From the sequence record OL631481.1: 64,000 nucleotides of DNA. One strand, 5' to 3'. Position 1 is the stretch's first letter; each line of letters starts with the position of its first letter. The notes below the pieces were generated by a model, which saw only the letters and a list, made by a program, of their open reading frames with translations, was not told the origin of the DNA and did no database searches. A program made the translations under genes and the position numbers. Source of the stretch: Escherichia phage ECML-183-2. Of this stretch, positions 7,833 to 17,470 are shown piece by piece.

Positions 7833-8027
7833 ATGCAGAGCGGAGAAGAACTTTTAGAGAAACAATTCTCAACGCGTCAACAAGCTTTAAGTTATATGGT
7901 TTTTCTAAGCAATCTTGATGTGAATGAGATACTTTTACGGCGCGAAGGTAATTTCTGGAGCGTTAAATATCATGCAACAAGGTCTGTAATCTACCTGGAA
8001 GAGGCGGAATTCTCTTTGGTAGAATGA
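7833..8027 (+). CDS. hypothetical protein (64 aa)
   Basis: ORF track; RBS AAGGAGGG. Confidence 0.45.
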   Translation: MQSGEELLEKQFSTRQQALSYMVFLSNLDVNEILLRREGNFWSVKYHATRSVIYLEEAEFSLVE

Positions 8028-8041
8028 TCCGAGGAGTAGTT

Positions 8042-8614
8042 ATGCGTTCAACTTTCACTGGCAAAATAAATGCTGGTTTGATTTTTACAGCAGTAAGCAT
8101 TCTTAGCAAAAAGTTTAAAGTTGTTAACTTACCTGTGTGTGTCGATTTCGATCATGTTTTTGATCCTTCGAACCCCACTCGTTGCATAGTAAGGAGCAAT
8201 GTTGAAAACCCAACAGAAAATCTTTTTTATGTAACAAAACCATCTCAAAGCATACTTAACCAGGTTGAGGCGAAATTGATACCTAACGGTAAATATTACT
8301 CCTTTTTACCTTGTAAGTCGGTTGAAGTAGAGAATAGCAATACTTTCGCTAATAACTTGTCTGTATTCGTTTTCTTTGTTTCACAGGAAGACGAAACAGA
8401 TGAAATGGTAGCAACAGTGAGATCACTTTATGACTCTTTAGGGGTTGTTTATAGTCAACAAGTGTGCGAAAATAATAAAGCCTGTGTAGATTTCATTATC
8501 AACGGTATTTGTGTTTGTAGAGTAGAATCTTTTTGGCTGCACGATACATATGTGACTGTAGCAGAGGTTATATCTGAACCAAGATTTAGTCATGCGGTTT
8601 CGTTAATAATTTGA
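8042..8614 (+). CDS. hypothetical protein (190 aa)
   Basis: ORF track; start moved to ATG with GAGGAG RBS. Confidence 0.5.
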   Translation: MRSTFTGKINAGLIFTAVSILSKKFKVVNLPVCVDFDHVFDPSNPTRCIVRSNVENPTENLFYVTKPSQSILNQVEAKLIPNGKYYSFLPCKSVEVENSNTFANNLSVFVFFVSQEDETDEMVATVRSLYDSLGVVYSQQVCENNKACVDFIINGICVCRVESFWLHDTYVTVAEVISEPRFSHAVSLII

Positions 8615-8624
8615 GGAGGAAGGA

Positions 8625-8954
8625 ATGGAAATTACTACAGAACAAGCCCTTATCGACGAGGGTCGTAAAATCTTAGAAAAGTATTTAGGGGAGATTCATA
8701 AAACCCCTGGCTATTTGGGTTGGAGAATTGTTGAAGCTGTAGATTTCCTTCCTCGTAACAGTAAAAACGTCGAAATGCGATCTCTTTTCTTATTAGTAAA
8801 GGTGGATGGGGATACGCCTTTTAAAGATGCCGCAGAACATATTGAAAAAGTTGAAGAGAAAGCTTATGCAGAATTTGCCGATCTTGTTTTAGAACAAGAG
8901 ATTGAAGGAAAGGTGAATATTTTTATTTTCTTAGATTTTGAGGAGGATAAGTGA
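8625..8954 (+). CDS. hypothetical protein (109 aa)
   Basis: ORF track; RBS GGAGGAAGG. Confidence 0.5.
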   Translation: MEITTEQALIDEGRKILEKYLGEIHKTPGYLGWRIVEAVDFLPRNSKNVEMRSLFLLVKVDGDTPFKDAAEHIEKVEEKAYAEFADLVLEQEIEGKVNIFIFLDFEEDK

Positions 8955-9694
8955 TCATACACAGAGAAATTACTGTTAAAAGCGATCAAGATCTTTTTAT
9001 AATTGGAGATCTACACGGTTGTTATAATTTGTATGAAAAAGGAAAGGCAAAGTTAGGTATCCGAGATACAGATGTGGTTGTATCTCTAGGAGATCTTACT
9101 GACCGTGGAAAGCAAAACTTTCGTTGTGTTTTAGAATTTACTCGTAAACACAATCGCTACGCTATTCGTGGCAATCATGAAGACATGATGATTAAAGGTA
9201 TGCTGGAAGGAGATCGTAGCTACTACGAGTGTTGGTATCAAAATGGAGGATATACGGTCTTTGAAGAATGTGGTGAAGAAGGAGCTACAGCCTTAGCAAT
9301 GATGACAGAAGATTTACCTGTTGTTCTCATTGTTAACTACAGAGGCATGAAACTTGCGTTTATTCATGGTGGGTATCCATCTTCTTTGGAATATCTCCCT
9401 GTAACAGATATTCCAGAATACATTTCGAAGATGACAAAAACACAGGAAAACCGTTTTGCTGAAGCACTTATGTGGGACAGAGATATGGTAGACTGTGCTA
9501 AAGAGGGAATGAAACTTCCTGTTGTGATGGGTGTGGATTATGTGTTTCATGGACACTCTTATGTAAAAACACCTATTATCAATGCGAATCGTGTTTATAT
9601 GGATACTGGATCTGTGTTCAATAATAACTTAACATTTGCTTATTTCGATATGGACGGTGGTCTTCAATTTTATTCAACTCTTGAGGAGGATTAA
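8951..9694 (+). CDS. Ser/Thr protein phosphatase (lambda-PPase-like metallophosphoesterase)
   Basis: GDLHGC, GDLTDRG, GNHE metal-binding motifs; GTG start with GAGGAGG RBS. Confidence 0.8.
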   Translation: MIIHREITVKSDQDLFIIGDLHGCYNLYEKGKAKLGIRDTDVVVSLGDLTDRGKQNFRCVLEFTRKHNRYAIRGNHEDMMIKGMLEGDRSYYECWYQNGGYTVFEECGEEGATALAMMTEDLPVVLIVNYRGMKLAFIHGGYPSSLEYLPVTDIPEYISKMTKTQENRFAEALMWDRDMVDCAKEGMKLPVVMGVDYVFHGHSYVKTPIINANRVYMDTGSVFNNNLTFAYFDMDGGLQFYSTLEED

Positions 9695-10002
9695 TGTATA
9701 AGATTACAATTATTCAAAGTGTAGGTAATATCCGTAAAGAAGTTATCTTAGAAACAGAAGATGTTAATCTTGTTCGTGAGATTGTTTTTAAGGAAGATAA
9801 CCTGCAAACTGTAGAATCGGATGCACCGAATCTTATGGTGGATCAAGAATATTCTGAACTTCGTCGTATTTTTGAAGAGATTCAGAAGAAAGAAACACAA
9901 CCTACCATAAAACCTTTTGGTCCTTATGATCCGAGCAATCCTAGCAGTCCTTGGATCATGAGAAATACGGAACCCTATACACCTTTTGAAATTACTTGTT
10001 GA
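9694..10002 (+). CDS. hypothetical protein (102 aa)
   Basis: ORF track; RBS GAGGAGG. Confidence 0.5.
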   Translation: MYKITIIQSVGNIRKEVILETEDVNLVREIVFKEDNLQTVESDAPNLMVDQEYSELRRIFEEIQKKETQPTIKPFGPYDPSNPSSPWIMRNTEPYTPFEITC

Positions 10003-10009
10003 GGTGATT

Positions 10010-10591
10010 ATGGCAGAACTGTTCTATACGGGAGTTGGAAGTAGAGACATATCTGAAGAAGAGTGGGCTTTGATGGTAGGCATAGGGAAATGGCTTTCAA
10101 ACCTTGGGTTTAAATTAAGGTCTGGGAAGGCAGAGGGTAGTGATTCTGCTTTTGAAACAGGTGTCCAAGAGTCTGAAAATCCTACTAACAAGGAGATTTA
10201 TGTTCCTTGGGAAAATTTCAAAGGTAATCAGATTCCAGGTGATGTTATTGTTCTTGCAAAACCAGATACAATGAACTATGCTATCTCTGTGCAATGGATC
10301 AAAGATGTTCACCCAGCTTATGAAAAGCTTAAGCAGGGTGCTAGAAAATTGCACCAACGTAATGTGCATCAAGTGTTAGGCAGAGATTTGGAGAATCCTG
10401 CTCCATCATGTTTCTTGTTGGCTTGTGCTAATACTGATAAACATGGAGATGCAAAAGGTGGAACAGCTACGGCTTGGAAGATAGCTAAAGCCAATAATGT
10501 TCCTTGTTTAAACATTCGTGGGAAAACAAAACAAGAGATTTACGATTTTCTACGACCTTTGGTAATGAGGGCAATAACAAGTGATTCCTAG
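10010..10591 (+). CDS. DprA/Smf-like Rossmann-fold (SLOG-type) protein
   Basis: GVGSRD ... LRSGKAEGSDSAFETG resembles DprA core; start moved to ATG after GAGG. Confidence 0.4.
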   Translation: MAELFYTGVGSRDISEEEWALMVGIGKWLSNLGFKLRSGKAEGSDSAFETGVQESENPTNKEIYVPWENFKGNQIPGDVIVLAKPDTMNYAISVQWIKDVHPAYEKLKQGARKLHQRNVHQVLGRDLENPAPSCFLLACANTDKHGDAKGGTATAWKIAKANNVPCLNIRGKTKQEIYDFLRPLVMRAITSDS

Positions 10592-12414: not shown

Positions 12415-13356
12415 ATGGTGTTAATTGGTAGCCGTGCATTACAAATTCATGCTATGGACATGGGAAAAGACTTGTATCGCCCTTGTGTAGATTTAGATTA
12501 CCTGTGTACAGAACAAGAGTGGGAAGAATTATCAAAAATGTTCTCTCAAGATGAGTTTGTTGAACTTGTAGAACGTAAAGGGAACAAGGGCCATGTCAAA
12601 ATGATAGCTGGTGCACATTTGGAATACGATATTGCTTCTCAAGGAGATAGCACAGAAGCTTTGATTAGTTATTGTGAAGATTCTGATGATGTTCGTCGAA
12701 CTTACGCTGGACACGTTGTTGCTCCTTTAGATGTGCTCTACCTTCTTAAAATGAGTCATCGTTTTAAAAAGGATAGTCCTCACTTCTTTAAAACTATGAA
12801 AGATATTCATTTCATGCGATCACTAGGCGCAAAGATCCCAGAAAATCTTAAGAGTGTTTACGAGTTGCGTGAGAAAGAAACATACACTTACTCTCATCCA
12901 AACTTAAACGTGAGAAGTAAAGATTTCTTTAAAGGTGATGAGGTTCCGTATGTTTATGATCATGATTCTATCCATGAAGCAATCGCGGTAATGGATGCTC
13001 CGGCATATAAATCTTATATGAAAGATGGAAGTGAAGTTATGACCAGCAAAGAAAAGTTTTTTGCTCAACCAAAACATGTGCGCCTGTTAGGTGTTTATGA
13101 AGAAGCGTGTGTTTTGGCTTTGGAACGTTCACAAATTCCTTTCGGTGGAGAGATCGGAGGTCCAACCCCTAAGCAAAGTTTTATAATGGCTTTATCTAAA
13201 GTCTGCACATCCATCACTAGTGGTTGGTTTAGGGAATATGCTTGGGAAAACTTTTATGTTGTTATTAAGCTATATGAAAACATGGGCGAAAACGACTATG
13301 TTGAACGTTTTAAAGCTAATCAACATGTAGTAAAGCCTTTTGAAGGAGGTTATTAA
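12415..13356 (+). CDS. hypothetical protein (313 aa), possible nucleotidyltransferase-like N-terminus
   Basis: N-terminal GS ... DLD segment loosely resembles pol-beta-type NTase motif but spacing atypical. Confidence 0.5.
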   Translation: MVLIGSRALQIHAMDMGKDLYRPCVDLDYLCTEQEWEELSKMFSQDEFVELVERKGNKGHVKMIAGAHLEYDIASQGDSTEALISYCEDSDDVRRTYAGHVVAPLDVLYLLKMSHRFKKDSPHFFKTMKDIHFMRSLGAKIPENLKSVYELREKETYTYSHPNLNVRSKDFFKGDEVPYVYDHDSIHEAIAVMDAPAYKSYMKDGSEVMTSKEKFFAQPKHVRLLGVYEEACVLALERSQIPFGGEIGGPTPKQSFIMALSKVCTSITSGWFREYAWENFYVVIKLYENMGENDYVERFKANQHVVKPFEGGY

Positions 13357-13357
13357 T

Positions 13358-13753
13358 ATGTGTGGATATCTTTCAGAAAGTTATTTCAAAGTGACGCATG
13401 AGGATTTAGAAAAAGCACGATTGAAACTGACAGCTATTATTGAATACTCTAATACTGTTGATCACAGATTAAAGACTACTAAAGTATCTGTTCCTTGTTG
13501 GTTAGGTTTACGGCATAAAATAATGTCTCAACATGACCATGTTGTTCGAGAGATGCATGGTTGGTGTTGGTTTCACGATGTGGCTCTGCATTTTGGTTAT
13601 ATTACAGAAGAAGAGCATAGATTCTGTGAACTAACATATCGTATTCCAACCCTTCACGATTTAGATTTGTGGAAGAAAGCAAACGAGATTTTTCTTACAG
13701 AAAGTGATTGGCGTAAAGTTATGGCTTGTCTTGAATGGAGGGGTAATGAGTAA
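13358..13753 (+). CDS. hypothetical protein (131 aa)
   Basis: Track ORF trimmed to ATG with GGAGG RBS. Confidence 0.45.
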   Translation: MCGYLSESYFKVTHEDLEKARLKLTAIIEYSNTVDHRLKTTKVSVPCWLGLRHKIMSQHDHVVREMHGWCWFHDVALHFGYITEEEHRFCELTYRIPTLHDLDLWKKANEIFLTESDWRKVMACLEWRGNE

Positions 13754-14429
13754 AACAGTTTTGTCTATGTTTGACGGATCTGGGATCATGGTGTTACGTT
13801 ATGCCGAAGCAGGTCACAAGTGTTTTTGTGTAAACGCTGATGAAGGGGATCACGGTAAATACGAGGTTAGGATGGAGCACCCAAACATAACCTATGTGAA
13901 TGCCTGGATAGATTCTACATTCAACCCTGAAGATCATGGGATACCTAAACCCGATATTATTTTTGGATTTCCACCTTGCACTATGTTAGCAGGTAGTGGT
14001 AGCAAACACGAACGCAGCACAGAGGAATTGGATGAAGCTTTAGCTAATATTCGTGTAGTGGAAGCTTTGGGTAACAAATATAATGTTCCTTGGATGATTG
14101 AGAACCCAGTAGGTAAACTTTCAACCTTATGGCGTAAACCCGATTTTTACTTTGATCCTTATGAGTATGGTGGGTATTTGTTTGAAGAGGAAGGAAGCTT
14201 TCATCCTAAAATGCCTACCCGTGATGGGTATACAAAGAAAACTTGTATTTGGCACGGCAATGGTTTTGTTCAACCAGTGAAGAAACCAGTAGATCATATA
14301 GGCTGCTTCTGGGGTTGGAAAAGCTTAGGCGGAGCTAGTGCAAAAACAAAACAACTTAGATCCCTAACCGCACGTGGTTTTGCTCGTGCCGTGTTTTTGT
14401 CTAACAATCTTCTAGATAAGGAGAAATAA
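13746..14429 (+). CDS. cytosine-C5 DNA methyltransferase-like protein (atypically short)
   Basis: Motif I-like FDGSG, motif IV-like FPPCT, motif VI-like ENPVG; only ~227 aa, no obvious target-recognition domain. Confidence 0.5.
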   Translation: MSKTVLSMFDGSGIMVLRYAEAGHKCFCVNADEGDHGKYEVRMEHPNITYVNAWIDSTFNPEDHGIPKPDIIFGFPPCTMLAGSGSKHERSTEELDEALANIRVVEALGNKYNVPWMIENPVGKLSTLWRKPDFYFDPYEYGGYLFEEEGSFHPKMPTRDGYTKKTCIWHGNGFVQPVKKPVDHIGCFWGWKSLGGASAKTKQLRSLTARGFARAVFLSNNLLDKEK

Positions 14430-15046
14430 TGTCAAATTCAAAACCAGTAGTTGCTTATCAAGTAGATCGTAATGATGGTGAAGGTAGTGTTGTAGTTTTT
14501 GATACACATGGTCTTGCAGCAAGACGCAAAGGTGCTTGTCTACTGGACATTGGTGGTGAAGATGAATACTGCACTGTACGTAGAGTAAAAGAATTTGATC
14601 AATATGCTGAAAAAGGTTTTGTACCCGTGAAAGCACTATTAGAAGCTGGATGGTGGATACCTAGTGCACATGATTATGATATTTTGGAAGATACAGATGA
14701 ATTCAACAGTGAAGATTTTGTTTTTTCTCTGGATGAAAAATGCGTTTGGAAGGACTGGGATGAAATGGAACGCCATGCTTATTTTATAAACGAAGCATTA
14801 GATCGTAAAACTTGGTTTGAGAATACAGTTAAAGCAGCGTATCCTCAATTTACTTTTACACAGTTTTGGGGTGGCCCACATCATATTACTCATACAGCAT
14901 ATTTCGAGTTCCCAGGCTCACGTTATAAAGGTACTGTTTATTGGGATTGGGACGAGGACAAAGAACCTTCTGCTCAAGACTTCCGTTGCTATGTTTGTCA
15001 AGGTGATCAAGAAGCCCTTGACAAATACCTACAAAGTCTGGTATAG
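14429..15046 (+). CDS. hypothetical protein (205 aa)
   Basis: ORF track; RBS AAGGAG. Confidence 0.5.
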   Translation: MSNSKPVVAYQVDRNDGEGSVVVFDTHGLAARRKGACLLDIGGEDEYCTVRRVKEFDQYAEKGFVPVKALLEAGWWIPSAHDYDILEDTDEFNSEDFVFSLDEKCVWKDWDEMERHAYFINEALDRKTWFENTVKAAYPQFTFTQFWGGPHHITHTAYFEFPGSRYKGTVYWDWDEDKEPSAQDFRCYVCQGDQEALDKYLQSLV

Positions 15047-15104: not shown

Positions 15105-15584
15105 ATGTTTCAAGTAAATGTCAATGTGCATAATAGTTACTCTGATTGTGAAACGTGTGGCTATAATTCATCTAATGTTGTTCGTATTAGTGGCGATTTA
15201 GGAGAAGCTTCTTTTGGAGAAGAAGCAAGTTGCTTTAGTGGTATGGATGCAGAATGGAATGATATTGCACATTGGTTGGTGAGCAAACTAAAAGAAAAAG
15301 AGAAACCATTTCCTACTCTGCTTGATCGTTCTCTTGTGGAAGACGCAGGTAAAGCATATGCAGACTATGCGTATGCAGACGGTAAATATTTGGAAGATGA
15401 TAAGGCTAACCATTTGCTTTATGTTTACTATGAAGCTGAATCTGCCTACGATAATTATTACAGCATGTCTAACATCCTACGTCTGTTTGCAGAGTTTGAT
15501 ATTTATTTCGAAGTAGAATTTTCAGAAGATGATGTTTATGAATATGATTCTTATGATCCATTTGAGGAGGAAGAGGGTGAATGA
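15105..15584 (+). CDS. hypothetical acidic protein (159 aa)
   Basis: ORF track; RBS AGGAGGG; highly acidic C-terminus. Confidence 0.5.
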   Translation: MFQVNVNVHNSYSDCETCGYNSSNVVRISGDLGEASFGEEASCFSGMDAEWNDIAHWLVSKLKEKEKPFPTLLDRSLVEDAGKAYADYAYADGKYLEDDKANHLLYVYYEAESAYDNYYSMSNILRLFAEFDIYFEVEFSEDDVYEYDSYDPFEEEEGE

Positions 15585-16168
15585 TAGAACGAAAACCCTT
15601 ACCAGATAGAGACTACTTGTTATCAAGGTTTAGTGTGGAGAATGGTCGTCTTGTTTGGAAACCTAAACCTTCTACAACAAAAGAGAACAAAAGATGGAAT
15701 AGCAGATACGCAGGGAAGATTGCAGGGACTATTGATAAAGCTGGTTACTCTCATGTCAAAATAGACGGTATTGTATACTTGGAGCACAGAGTTTGTTTTA
15801 AAATGTACCATAATTACTGTCCAGATGTTATAGATCATGATGACGGCAATAAGCTTAATAATGCGGAAAGTAATTTATTGGATAGTAACTATTTATTAAA
15901 TAATAACAATAGACATGTGGATGGGTTAGAAGGTATTTATGAAAAGGATGGTGTTTTTCTTTGGGTTATAAACTACAACCAAGAAACTTTCTCTGTTTCA
16001 GGTTTCAAAACTAAAGAGGAAGCTACTGTAGCTAGAGCTTTAGCAAAACAAGAAATTTTGAAAGGATCTTATATCAAAAAAGAAAAGAAGCGTATAGATA
16101 ACACTTCAGGATTAAGTTGTGTGTTTGTGGCAACAAGAGAGAACATTCTTTTTCAAGTTTGTGTTTGA
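15581..16168 (+). CDS. HNH homing-endonuclease-like protein with AP2-type DNA-binding domain (possibly frameshifted)
   Basis: HNH_3-like YLEHRV...IDHDDGNKLNN; AP2-like VSGFKTKEEATVARALA; C-terminus appears to continue in +1 frame after T5 run at 16149-16153. Confidence 0.65.
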   Translation: MIERKPLPDRDYLLSRFSVENGRLVWKPKPSTTKENKRWNSRYAGKIAGTIDKAGYSHVKIDGIVYLEHRVCFKMYHNYCPDVIDHDDGNKLNNAESNLLDSNYLLNNNNRHVDGLEGIYEKDGVFLWVINYNQETFSVSGFKTKEEATVARALAKQEILKGSYIKKEKKRIDNTSGLSCVFVATRENILFQVCV

Positions 16169-16308
16169 CAAGACCACGTATTGCAAATATGGTTTCAACG
16201 ATCCAGAGAGATGTGCTATAGCTCTGGAGAAGCTAAGGTTGAAGGTGATGAAAGAAAAATATAAACCTGCAAATAAAAGCATTTGCGAAAAACATAAGGA
16301 GGAGATTT

Positions 16309-17124
16309 ATGCCGCGTAGAGTCATATTCATAACTGGCGCAGGACTATCTGTGGATAGCGGTATCCCAGCTTTTAGAACAGATACTTCTTCAGGGGAGGC
16401 GTTATGGTCTTCTTATAATCTTTCTGAAGTCTGTGACATTTTCAACTTCCGTGACGGTTATCAGCAAGAACAAGGTATTCTGGATGCTATGGGCGGTTTA
16501 GATGCGGAAGGATATAACCTCTACCGTAAAACTCACGACTTTTACAATAAACGTCGCGCGGAATTAGAGAAAGTTGACCCGAATCCGGCACATCTTCAGA
16601 TTGGGGAATGGTTCAAAAAACATGGTGCAGAAAAGATTATTAACATCACTACTAACGTTGATGACCTCCTTGAACGAGCAGGAGTAGATAGGGAAGAAGT
16701 GCTACATGTGCATGGTTTTCTTCCTGAAATTACTTTTCAAAGAAAAGCTGGACAACCTACAATTGTAAAAGATGTTGGTTATCAAGCCATAGATGTAGAT
16801 GACTACCATTATGTAAAACCTAATGTAATCTTCTTTGGGGAAGCTGCTCCACTTTACACAGATATGTATCATATTTTTGATACACTGACGGCTCAAGATA
16901 TGGTTATCGTTGTAGGCTGCTCTAACCAAGTAATCAACTTCAACTGGGAACTCTTCCCTGCCCTGAATATTGGGGTTAAGATGGTTGTAGTTAACCCAGG
17001 TTTGAATTTTGTAGAACAAACTCTCTACGAAGAACGTGGAGTGCTTGTCTACCGAGAGAAAGCAGGAACAGTCTTCAGTGATGAAGGCTTTATCAAAATG
17101 GTTGAAGACCATTTAAACAAATAA
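16309..17124 (+). CDS. Sir2-family (sirtuin-like) NAD+-dependent protein, no zinc-ribbon
   Basis: GAGLSVDSGIPAFR, TTNVDDLLERAG, HG, VIFFGE, VVGCS motifs; the CxxC..CxxC Zn module is absent. Confidence 0.8.
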   Translation: MPRRVIFITGAGLSVDSGIPAFRTDTSSGEALWSSYNLSEVCDIFNFRDGYQQEQGILDAMGGLDAEGYNLYRKTHDFYNKRRAELEKVDPNPAHLQIGEWFKKHGAEKIINITTNVDDLLERAGVDREEVLHVHGFLPEITFQRKAGQPTIVKDVGYQAIDVDDYHYVKPNVIFFGEAAPLYTDMYHIFDTLTAQDMVIVVGCSNQVINFNWELFPALNIGVKMVVVNPGLNFVEQTLYEERGVLVYREKAGTVFSDEGFIKMVEDHLNK

Positions 17125-17133
17125 ACCACTCAA

Positions 17134-17153
17134 GGGGCTTCGGCCCCTTTCTT
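17134..17153 (+). terminator. rho-independent terminator
   Basis: GGGGC-TTCG-GCCCC hairpin followed by TTTCTTATT. Confidence 0.7.
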
Positions 17154-17440: not shown

Positions 17441-17445
17441 AACAA

Positions 17446-17470
17446 AGGCACCCAAGTGGGTGCCTTTTCT
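17446..17470. terminator. bidirectional rho-independent terminator at the plus/minus block boundary
   Basis: AGGCACCC-loop-GGGTGCCT hairpin with T-runs on both strands. Confidence 0.7.

Follow-up and report, generated by a model that had tools for sequence, protein, structure and literature searches.

Two incompatible predictions have been published for the sirtuins encoded by phages: that they deacetylate host proteins, and that they are RNA-repair enzymes resembling Tpt1. Skliros et al. (2016) modelled the homologue of a KVP40-type phage on CobB and remarked that it lacks the zinc ligands; they named T5 among further carriers and suggested host enzymes as targets of deacetylation (PMC5107563). 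Iyer et al. (2022) predicted that a phage-specific sirtuin clade acts like KptA/Tpt1 on RNA 2'-phosphates. They based this on three kinds of gene neighbourhood: in jumbo phages, 2H, Nudix, cREC and PIN genes; in rV5 and Mydo, genes for a T4-like RNA ligase, cREC, a kinase and MazG; in SP15, a gene for a HAD 'Swiss-army-knife' phosphatase (PMC9503650). We analysed a member of this clade (PHROG 2162 / VOG1363), the product of the sir2 gene in a stretch of 64,000 nucleotides from Escherichia phage ECML-183-2 (OL631481.1), which we refer to as the window. The clade is widespread, its carriers including T5-like, rV5-like and phAPEC8-like phages that serve in phage therapy and belong to model collections, and the interest lies in the biochemistry of this very widespread enzyme rather than in the window locus. 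A deacetylase would show large virulent phages rewiring host protein acylation; a role in RNA repair would show the sirtuin fold recruited to nucleic-acid repair.

The open reading frame (ORF) and its ribosome-binding site are located as follows.

16309..17124, + strand: sir2 ORF of 271 amino acids with an ATG start; PF02146 sirtuin of the phage-specific clade PHROG 2162
16296..16302, + strand: Shine-Dalgarno sequence AAGGAGG, 6 nt 5' of the sir2 ATG, read directly from the sequence

The DNA around sir2 is 98.2% identical over 3 kb to that of Escherichia phage nepoznato (Phapecoctavirus, Stephanstirmvirinae), and the sir2 product is 100% identical to nepoznato gp193, annotated "Sir2-like protein". 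This annotation of the gene, the clade and its zinc-free state are thus already on record. In comparisons of sir2 with its homologues the proportion of synonymous differences (pS) was 0.66-0.85, at which synonymous sites are saturated, and the proportion of nonsynonymous differences (pN) was 0.15-0.33. The ratio of nonsynonymous to synonymous rates (dN/dS) was 0.14 in the single computable pair, synonymous sites being saturated in all other pairs. The saturated synonymous sites with low pN, the strong ribosome-binding site and the identity to the nepoznato protein together show that sir2 is a real gene on which purifying selection acts. The original prediction of a phage Sir2-like protein at this place was confirmed for exactly this ORF by matches to the Pfam SIR2 family PF02146 (score 76.5 bits, cut-off 24; E = 3.2e-21; aligned over positions 1-178 of the 180 in the profile) and to the PHROG 2162 "Sir2" profile (E = 1.2e-95).

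The sir2 product grouped with the canonical deacylases in every placement test. All of its best NCBIfam matches were 'NAD-dependent protein deacylase/CobB' models, and a phmmer search of the PDB returned canonical sirtuins only (Af2, CobB, SIRT5, Af1 and Sir2Tm). An AlphaFold2 model of the protein (predicted local distance difference test score, pLDDT, 90.6; predicted template modelling score, pTM, 0.88) has the two-lobed sirtuin fold, with a Rossmann domain and a small domain consisting of a helical module and a β-ribbon. Its best Foldseek match was E. coli CobB (1s5p, E = 1.9e-16, target-normalised TM score 0.85), followed by Af1, Af2 and SIRT5, and the best 50 matches were canonical deacylases throughout. 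Overall, CobB, SIRT5, Sir2-Af1 and PfSir2A were the best matches by sequence and structure. Defence enzymes ranked behind these (PsSIR2, 13.8; KomC, 12.4; HerA-Sir2, 12.3; ThsA, 11.5; FAM118B, 9.7; Avs5, 9.3) and are not the closest structural neighbours.

It had been proposed that the protein has a configuration shared with the NAD+ (nicotinamide adenine dinucleotide) glycohydrolases, or NADases, of the Sir2 type, and that profile placement would assign it to a deacetylase or an NADase clade. Placement went the other way. The SIR2_2 profile (PF13289) scored 12.2 bits, under its cut-off of 24.5, and no PADLOC model matched significantly, the sole hit being PDC-S65 (E = 0.038 over 40 residues). 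The clustering with CobB-type enzymes, which had been named beforehand as one half of the evidence to the contrary, means that the leaning towards an NADase is not supported, and with CobB leading the Foldseek list we rejected a placement among the defence enzymes. The defence NADases (ThsA, DSR1/2, SIR2-HerA, SPARSA, Avs5, KomC) have the Rossmann-type SIR2 core with catalytic Asn and His in common with the phage sirtuin, and like it they lack a Cys4 site; unlike them, the phage sirtuin keeps the canonical small domain and peptide cleft and is free of sensor or partner domains. No fused or adjacent sensor partner (SLOG, HerA, APAZ-pAgo, STAND or DSR C-terminal domain) was found in this single-domain protein or the neighbouring ORFs checked.

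The SirTM enzymes (class M) were a second candidate. SirTM is a non-deacylase, ADP-ribosylating class marked by QG in place of HG, which keeps its zinc domain and is linked in operons to a macrodomain (PMC4518038). The phage sirtuin, in contrast, has an invariant HG and no zinc site, and none of the 18 neighbouring ORFs scanned encodes a Macro domain. Since HG is retained, the sir2 product falls outside this class, and SirTM was rejected.

A search of 1.84 billion cluster representatives yielded 2105 relatives of the sir2 product. We used 119 full-length relatives as the close family, and 141 full-length cluster representatives, clustered at 50% identity, for conservation counts in the wider family. 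Relatives are present in 992 of 50,697 deposited phage records, the carriers being phAPEC8-like, rV5-like, other 145-153 kb Klebsiella and Cronobacter, T5-like and KVP40-like Vibrio phages and some jumbo phages. Identity is 42-68% to the homologues of rV5-like, T5-like and other 145-153 kb phages (47% to that of the rV5-like phage FV3 and 50-56% to T5-like phages), 34-37% to those of KVP40-like Vibrio phages and 28-37% to those of jumbo phages. The window, rV5-type, T5-like and jumbo-phage sirtuins all fall into PHROG 2162, which makes the window protein a homologue of the clade of Iyer et al. The closest zinc-containing relatives come from metagenomes, on contigs no longer than 127 kb. We conclude that the sir2 product is very probably a canonical-type, CobB-derived sirtuin (CobB/SIRT5-like, class III) of a phage-specific, zinc-free clade, selectively maintained and putatively active. 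With similar confidence, as read from the alignments, this clade appears to have lost the four structural zinc cysteines while keeping the helical module, the ribbon and a complete predicted catalytic apparatus.

The residues on which this assignment depends are listed here.

16336..16377, + strand: residues 10-23, GAGLSVDSGIPAFR, Rossmann NAD-binding and cofactor-binding loop (from conservation)
16432..16434, + strand: C42, invariant in the close family, aligned with the acyl-pocket residue Ala76 of CobB (from alignment and conservation)
16543..16557, + strand: Y79-N-K-R82-R83, class III Y-x-x-R pair (from alignment and conservation)
16648..16662, + strand: T114-T115-N116-V117-D118, variant of TQNxD with Asn and Asp kept and Gln replaced by Thr (from alignment and conservation)
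16711..16716, + strand: H135-G136, catalytic His motif (from alignment and conservation)
16717..16815, + strand: residues 137-169, Cys-free counterpart of the zinc ribbon, with predicted β-strands and a conserved D-V/I-G-Y motif (from alignment and model)
16825..16842, + strand: residues 173-178, VIFFGE, the FGE substrate-cleft loop (F176-G177-E178; from alignment and conservation)
16915..16923, + strand: G203-C204-S205, variant of the GTS NAD-binding motif (from alignment and conservation)

The phage sirtuin and the CobB/class III enzymes have in common GAGxS...FR, N-x-D, HG, FGE, Y-x-x-R and the two-lobed fold, at about 25% identity between the phage protein and CobB. The catalytic residues H135, N116 and D118 align to the motifs of CobB and Sir2-Af2; H135 and N116 are present in 141/141 representatives and D118 in 136/141. 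In the cofactor-binding region the close family shows no variation at G10, A11, G12, F22 or R23; among the representatives, F22 is found in 128/141 and R23 in 136/141. The alignment places F78-Y79-N-K-R82-R83, which includes the class III pair, opposite FYNARR of E. coli CobB; Y79, R82 and R83 do not vary within the close family, and Y79 occurs in 132 of the representatives. Alignment to E. coli CobB and Sir2-Af2 also identified N229. The phage sirtuin differs from CobB in its very acidic character, in the absence of the zinc cysteines, and in four substitutions: Gln to Thr in TQNxD, GTS to GCS, VYP to VIN, and Ala76 to Cys. The first of these, Thr115, is invariant in the close family. C42 is likewise invariant there and is Cys in 112/141 representatives; the corresponding A76 position is mutated in engineered CobB variants, as named in their PDB entries. 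In the VxP substrate- or peptide-binding loop the Pro is replaced by Asn. The earlier statement that all NAD-binding sirtuin motifs are present was therefore correct for G10-A11-G12, F22-R23, N116/D118, H135-G136, FGE and N229, but not for the TQN Gln (Thr), GTS (GCS) or the VxP Pro (Asn).

The zinc module had also been described as missing. This was correct for its ligands but not for the ribbon itself, which is kept. No CxxC was found in the sir2 product or in any of the 119 relatives; the four zinc cysteines, and with them the Cys4 structural zinc site, are absent. Conserved Cys or His substitutes for the ligands were not found in the ribbon of these relatives, where Cys is only sporadic. 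The ribbon, at about 35 residues, is of the usual length (residues 136-173) and is confidently predicted to form a three-stranded β-sheet (pLDDT block means 93-95). Its D-[IV]-G-Y motif is common to many zinc-free and zinc-containing members of the family and is not found in CobB. Among the 141 representatives, those with the TQNxD Gln kept the cysteines in 71 cases and lacked them in 11, whereas those without it, which usually have Thr, kept them in 17 and lacked them in 42. These counts were made without phylogenetic correction, and the association is therefore descriptive only. The nearest clusters have TTNVD and no cysteines, and the remoter ones TQNVD and four cysteines. That clade members without the zinc cysteines tend also to lack the TQN Gln, and that the acyl-pocket Cys is invariant in the close family, are modest new observations of this study.

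Our best guess from the sequence is that the sir2 product is an NAD+-dependent protein deacylase, to which we give a probability of roughly 40%. This reading starts from the family placement, fold, conservation, selection and context of the gene, from which we infer the substrate and the physiological role. NAD+ would be bound in the Rossmann cleft via G10-A11-G12, S205 and N229, and N116 and D118 would position and destabilise the nicotinamide-ribosyl bond. The carbonyl oxygen of the acyl-lysine would then attack C1' with departure of nicotinamide, and H135 would activate a ribose hydroxyl, the intermediate being resolved to free lysine and O-acyl-ADP-ribose. By analogy with CobB and SIRT5, the Y79/R82 pair suggests that the enzyme prefers acyl groups carrying a negative charge, for example succinyl and malonyl. 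The protein has an isoelectric point (pI) of 4.9 and a net charge of about -15, and the values for the 119 close relatives all lie within pI 4.6-6.05; such a very acidic surface suggests basic protein substrates. The + strand block that contains sir2 probably holds early or middle genes, judged by its DNA-metabolism content, and from this position the enzyme would be expected to alter how host or phage proteins are acylated in the course of infection.

Several observations weigh against a deacylase. All of the NCBIfam CobB equivalog cut-offs were missed widely (NF040867 prot_deacyl_CobB, 84.3 bits against 320), and the best subfamily model, NF001753, scored 98.4 bits against 243. The changes near the putative active site (Gln to Thr, GTS to GCS, VxP to VIN, Ala to Cys42 and the loss of zinc) hint at an altered substrate, and we found no biochemical study of any clade member in the literature. 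In addition, the link with RNA end-processing genes recurs across independent contexts. Of 57 IMG/VR loci, about 15, which come from 137-153 kb phages, show the gene order phosphoesterase, Rnl1, cREC, kinase, Sir2, DNA ligase, MazG, and in the T5-like phage Seafire sir2 is followed by a gene for a HAD_SAK_2 'RNA repair' phosphatase. The rV5-like phage FV3 has the order RNA_lig_T4_1, cREC_REC, Sir2, MazG-like, alongside a divergent AAA_33 kinase and a calcineurin phosphoesterase, with a tRNA cluster 5 kb away. FV3 and Seafire thus reproduce two of the three published neighbourhood types. These data bear on an RNA-repair sirtuin that would move ADP-ribose from NAD+ onto an RNA 2'-phosphate, as a Tpt1/KptA analogue in a sirtuin fold, and would work with Rnl1 ligase, a kinase resembling polynucleotide kinase (PNK), cREC and a phosphoesterase in mending tRNAs cut by host anticodon nucleases. 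We hold this to be possible, if on the unlikely side. It was predicted for exactly this clade (rV5, Mydo, SP15/T5-like and jumbo phages; PMC9503650, section 3.7.3), and the two-step chemistry of Tpt1, ADP-ribosyl transfer followed by transesterification with NAD+, formally parallels sirtuin chemistry in the outline given in PMC11417386. Tpt1/KptA has an ART-like fold unrelated to the Rossmann fold of the sirtuins, however, and the functional equivalence proposed for the phage clade is a prediction only (PMC9503650; PMC11417386). The clade-specific substitutions around the NAD-ribose and substrate sites suggest a change of substrate, and the near-identical nepoznato genome keeps an Rnl1/PNK/cREC cassette and a cluster of nine tRNA genes. 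These are located 27-32 kb upstream of sir2, and in the cassette three small ORFs occupy the slot that separates the kinase gene from the DNA ligase gene. In its most specific form, the zinc-free phage enzyme would be the first RNA-acting sirtuin, stripping 2'-phosphates from broken tRNA ends by means of NAD+ and His135, and acting in trans with the cassette about 27 kb away; Gln to Thr, zinc loss, Cys42 and VxP to VIN would then be substrate adaptations. We regard this as unlikely. In the window, tblastn with the Rnl1, cREC, MazG, kinase and phosphoesterase of FV3 in addition to its sirtuin found Sir2 only, ARAGORN predicted no tRNA gene, and the Rfam scan returned no match of any kind. The absence of an RNA-repair neighbourhood from the window is explained by the distance of about 27 kb by which sir2 has moved from the cassette, and this uncoupling in Phapecoctavirus is a second modest novelty. 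The synteny of the rV5-like and 145-kb phages may be plain inheritance. Pathways of the T4 Pnkp/Rnl1 type seal 2'-OH/3'-OH ends and need no 2'-phosphotransferase. Tpt1/KptA (PF01885) was not found in the Sir2 slot of the Sir2-less phages with the same cassette (phiPsa397, K8 and Athena), and T5-like carriers mostly lack Rnl1, Sir2 being present in 289 Salmonella phage records and Rnl1 in only 15. The family-wide acidity is atypical for an RNA enzyme and favours a deacylase, and we found no report of any sirtuin acting on RNA. The absence of a Tpt1/KptA replacement, the scarcity of Rnl1 among T5-like carriers and the retained HG all argue for a deacylase, as do neighbours in sequence and fold that are all deacylases and the retention of the peptide-cleft elements and Y-x-x-R.

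A conflict enzyme acting on NAD+ or ADP-ribose is improbable in our estimate. Such a protein would be an NAD+ glycohydrolase or a protein ADP-ribosyltransferase, or would act on NAD-derived immune signals, and would manipulate the host NAD+ pool or disable host defence. Defence SIR2 NADases use the same Asn/His catalytic pair, so the conserved residues would also suit an NADase role, and the zinc site is lost in these enzymes as well. An ORF labelled DprA-like/SLOG and a calcineurin phosphoesterase gene lie 5-7 kb upstream of sir2 and travel with it in two other lineages. In Sir2-less phages the Rnl1 cassette is flanked by Prs-like, Macro, NadV-like and Nudix genes, the first three in the slot region, which suggests an island with an NAD/ADP-ribose theme. 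On the other hand, SIR2_2 and PADLOC gave no significant match, HG has not been swapped for QG as in SirTM, and the 18 neighbouring ORFs scanned yielded neither a macrodomain nor a sensor partner. The FGE loop, ribbon and helical module of the peptide cleft, together with F22 and Y79/R82, are kept although they would be superfluous for an NADase, and nepoznato has no annotated NAD+ salvage genes that could pair with Sir2 and offset a self-inflicted loss of NAD+. We consider it very improbable that the protein is a catalytically dead remnant, or a structural or decoy protein, with a small domain destabilised by zinc loss. Structural zinc is generally held to be important for sirtuin stability, a concern raised in PMC5107563, and the conserved Gln of TQNxD has been lost; but the catalytic residues are retained across the clusters at the frequencies given above, purifying selection is strong, the family is found in close to a thousand phage records (992) and the ribbon is confidently predicted as folded.

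The Sir2-less phages phiPsa397 (L066, Pseudomonas), Athena (L067, Vibrio) and K8 (L068, Pseudomonas) have a cassette of Rnl1, AAA_33 kinase and phosphoesterase genes. Directly 3' of it are genes annotated 'ribose-phosphate pyrophosphokinase' and 'nicotinamide phosphoribosyltransferase' and, in Athena, a Macro gene; the first two resemble the published NARP1 pair for NAD+ reconstitution. From these genes, RNA-repair and NAD+/ADP-ribose functions seem to cluster repeatedly in large virulent phages. In Seafire, gp117 (L005, 7129-7668) is labelled 'Sir2 (NAD-dependent deacetylase)' by RefSeq and PHROG and is actually a HAD_SAK_2 phosphatase (Pfam E = 4.4e-19), to which the annotation of the adjoining true sir2 was probably carried over.

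In the window, only one gene follows sir2 in the long + strand block to which it belongs. Other clade members have the same zinc-free ribbon and TTNVD; the window gene differs from them in lying outside an RNA-repair neighbourhood, within the block methyltransferase-like, phrog_8514, phrog_9509, sir2, phrog_15991, with an HNH gene inserted 5' of it. The features flanking sir2 are the following.

15581..16319, + strand: HNH homing-endonuclease gene inserted directly 5' of sir2, frameshifted (phrog_99, E = 4.7e-32)
17132..17149, + strand: terminator-like GC hairpin and T-run, 8 nt past the sir2 stop (from a consensus scan only)
17444..17467, no strand assigned: bidirectional terminator-like hairpin at the junction of the + strand block with a converging - strand block (from a consensus scan)

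An annotated terminator of phAPEC8 is located at the place equivalent to 17444..17467, and the GC skew changes sign where the two blocks meet. The HNH gene, which overlaps the start of sir2 by 11 nt, had been reported as adjoining it, and this is so; the gene is, however, disrupted by a 2-bp (AG) deletion near 16136 relative to the intact nepoznato gp194 (246 aa). The frameshift splits it in two, an ORF of 195 aa that retains the intact HNH motif and one of 66 aa in the +1 frame. Most Phapecoctavirus relatives lack the gene, and it is a mobile insertion; its frameshift reflects either decay of a mobile element or a sequencing error. The recombinase-containing block that had likewise been placed next to sir2 amounts to a single ORF with the PHROG label 'DprA-like', 5.7 kb upstream.

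The gene order conserved in phAPEC8-like phages is phrog_4806, calcineurin phosphoesterase, DprA-like, phrog_8569, DUF7277+DUF7275, phrog_16551, methyltransferase-like, phrog_8514, phrog_9509, Sir2, phrog_15991. The trio of methyltransferase-like, phrog_8514 and Sir2 genes recurs in another lineage (L052, L053). In the window the first of the trio is a 241-aa C5-methyltransferase-like ORF (13704-14429, +) with FDGSG and GFPPC motifs, which matches phrog_757 strongly and Pfam DNA_methylase only weakly (E = 0.21); locus L056 also carries such a gene. The phrog_8514 protein is encoded at 14429-15046 (+) and travels with the methyltransferase-like ORF and sir2 in the phAPEC8-like phages and in L052 and L053. 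At 12415-13356 (+) lies the gene for a 313-aa protein with DUF7277 at its N-terminus and DUF7275 (E = 2.5e-75), kept 3 kb 5' of sir2 in phAPEC8-like phages and L053; its N-terminus (GSRAL...DLDY) resembles the minimal nucleotidyltransferase motif. None of these three proteins had an informative sequence match in Pfam or the PDB. Further upstream, the calcineurin-like phosphoesterase (8951-9694, +), annotated NinI-like, matches the phosphoesterase part of the phrog_8238 'RNA ligase' (E = 1.4e-10), and beside it are the 'DprA-like' ORF (9986-10591) and a phrog_4806 'histidyl tRNA synthetase' ORF (8024-8614). The labels in this region seem doubtful.

Beyond the hairpin at 17444..17467, a stretch of about 1.7 kb (~33.6-35.3 kb) corresponds to no annotated coding sequence in nepoznato and contains only short overlapping ORFs, with no Rfam match and no tandem repeat. 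The - strand from about 17500 to 53000, corresponding to nepoznato gp104-gp191, carries small hypothetical ORFs in one very long run. In nepoznato several VOG families recur within the run, VOG7392 with five members and VOG6032 and VOG7198 with two each, a pattern suggestive of small paralogous gene families.

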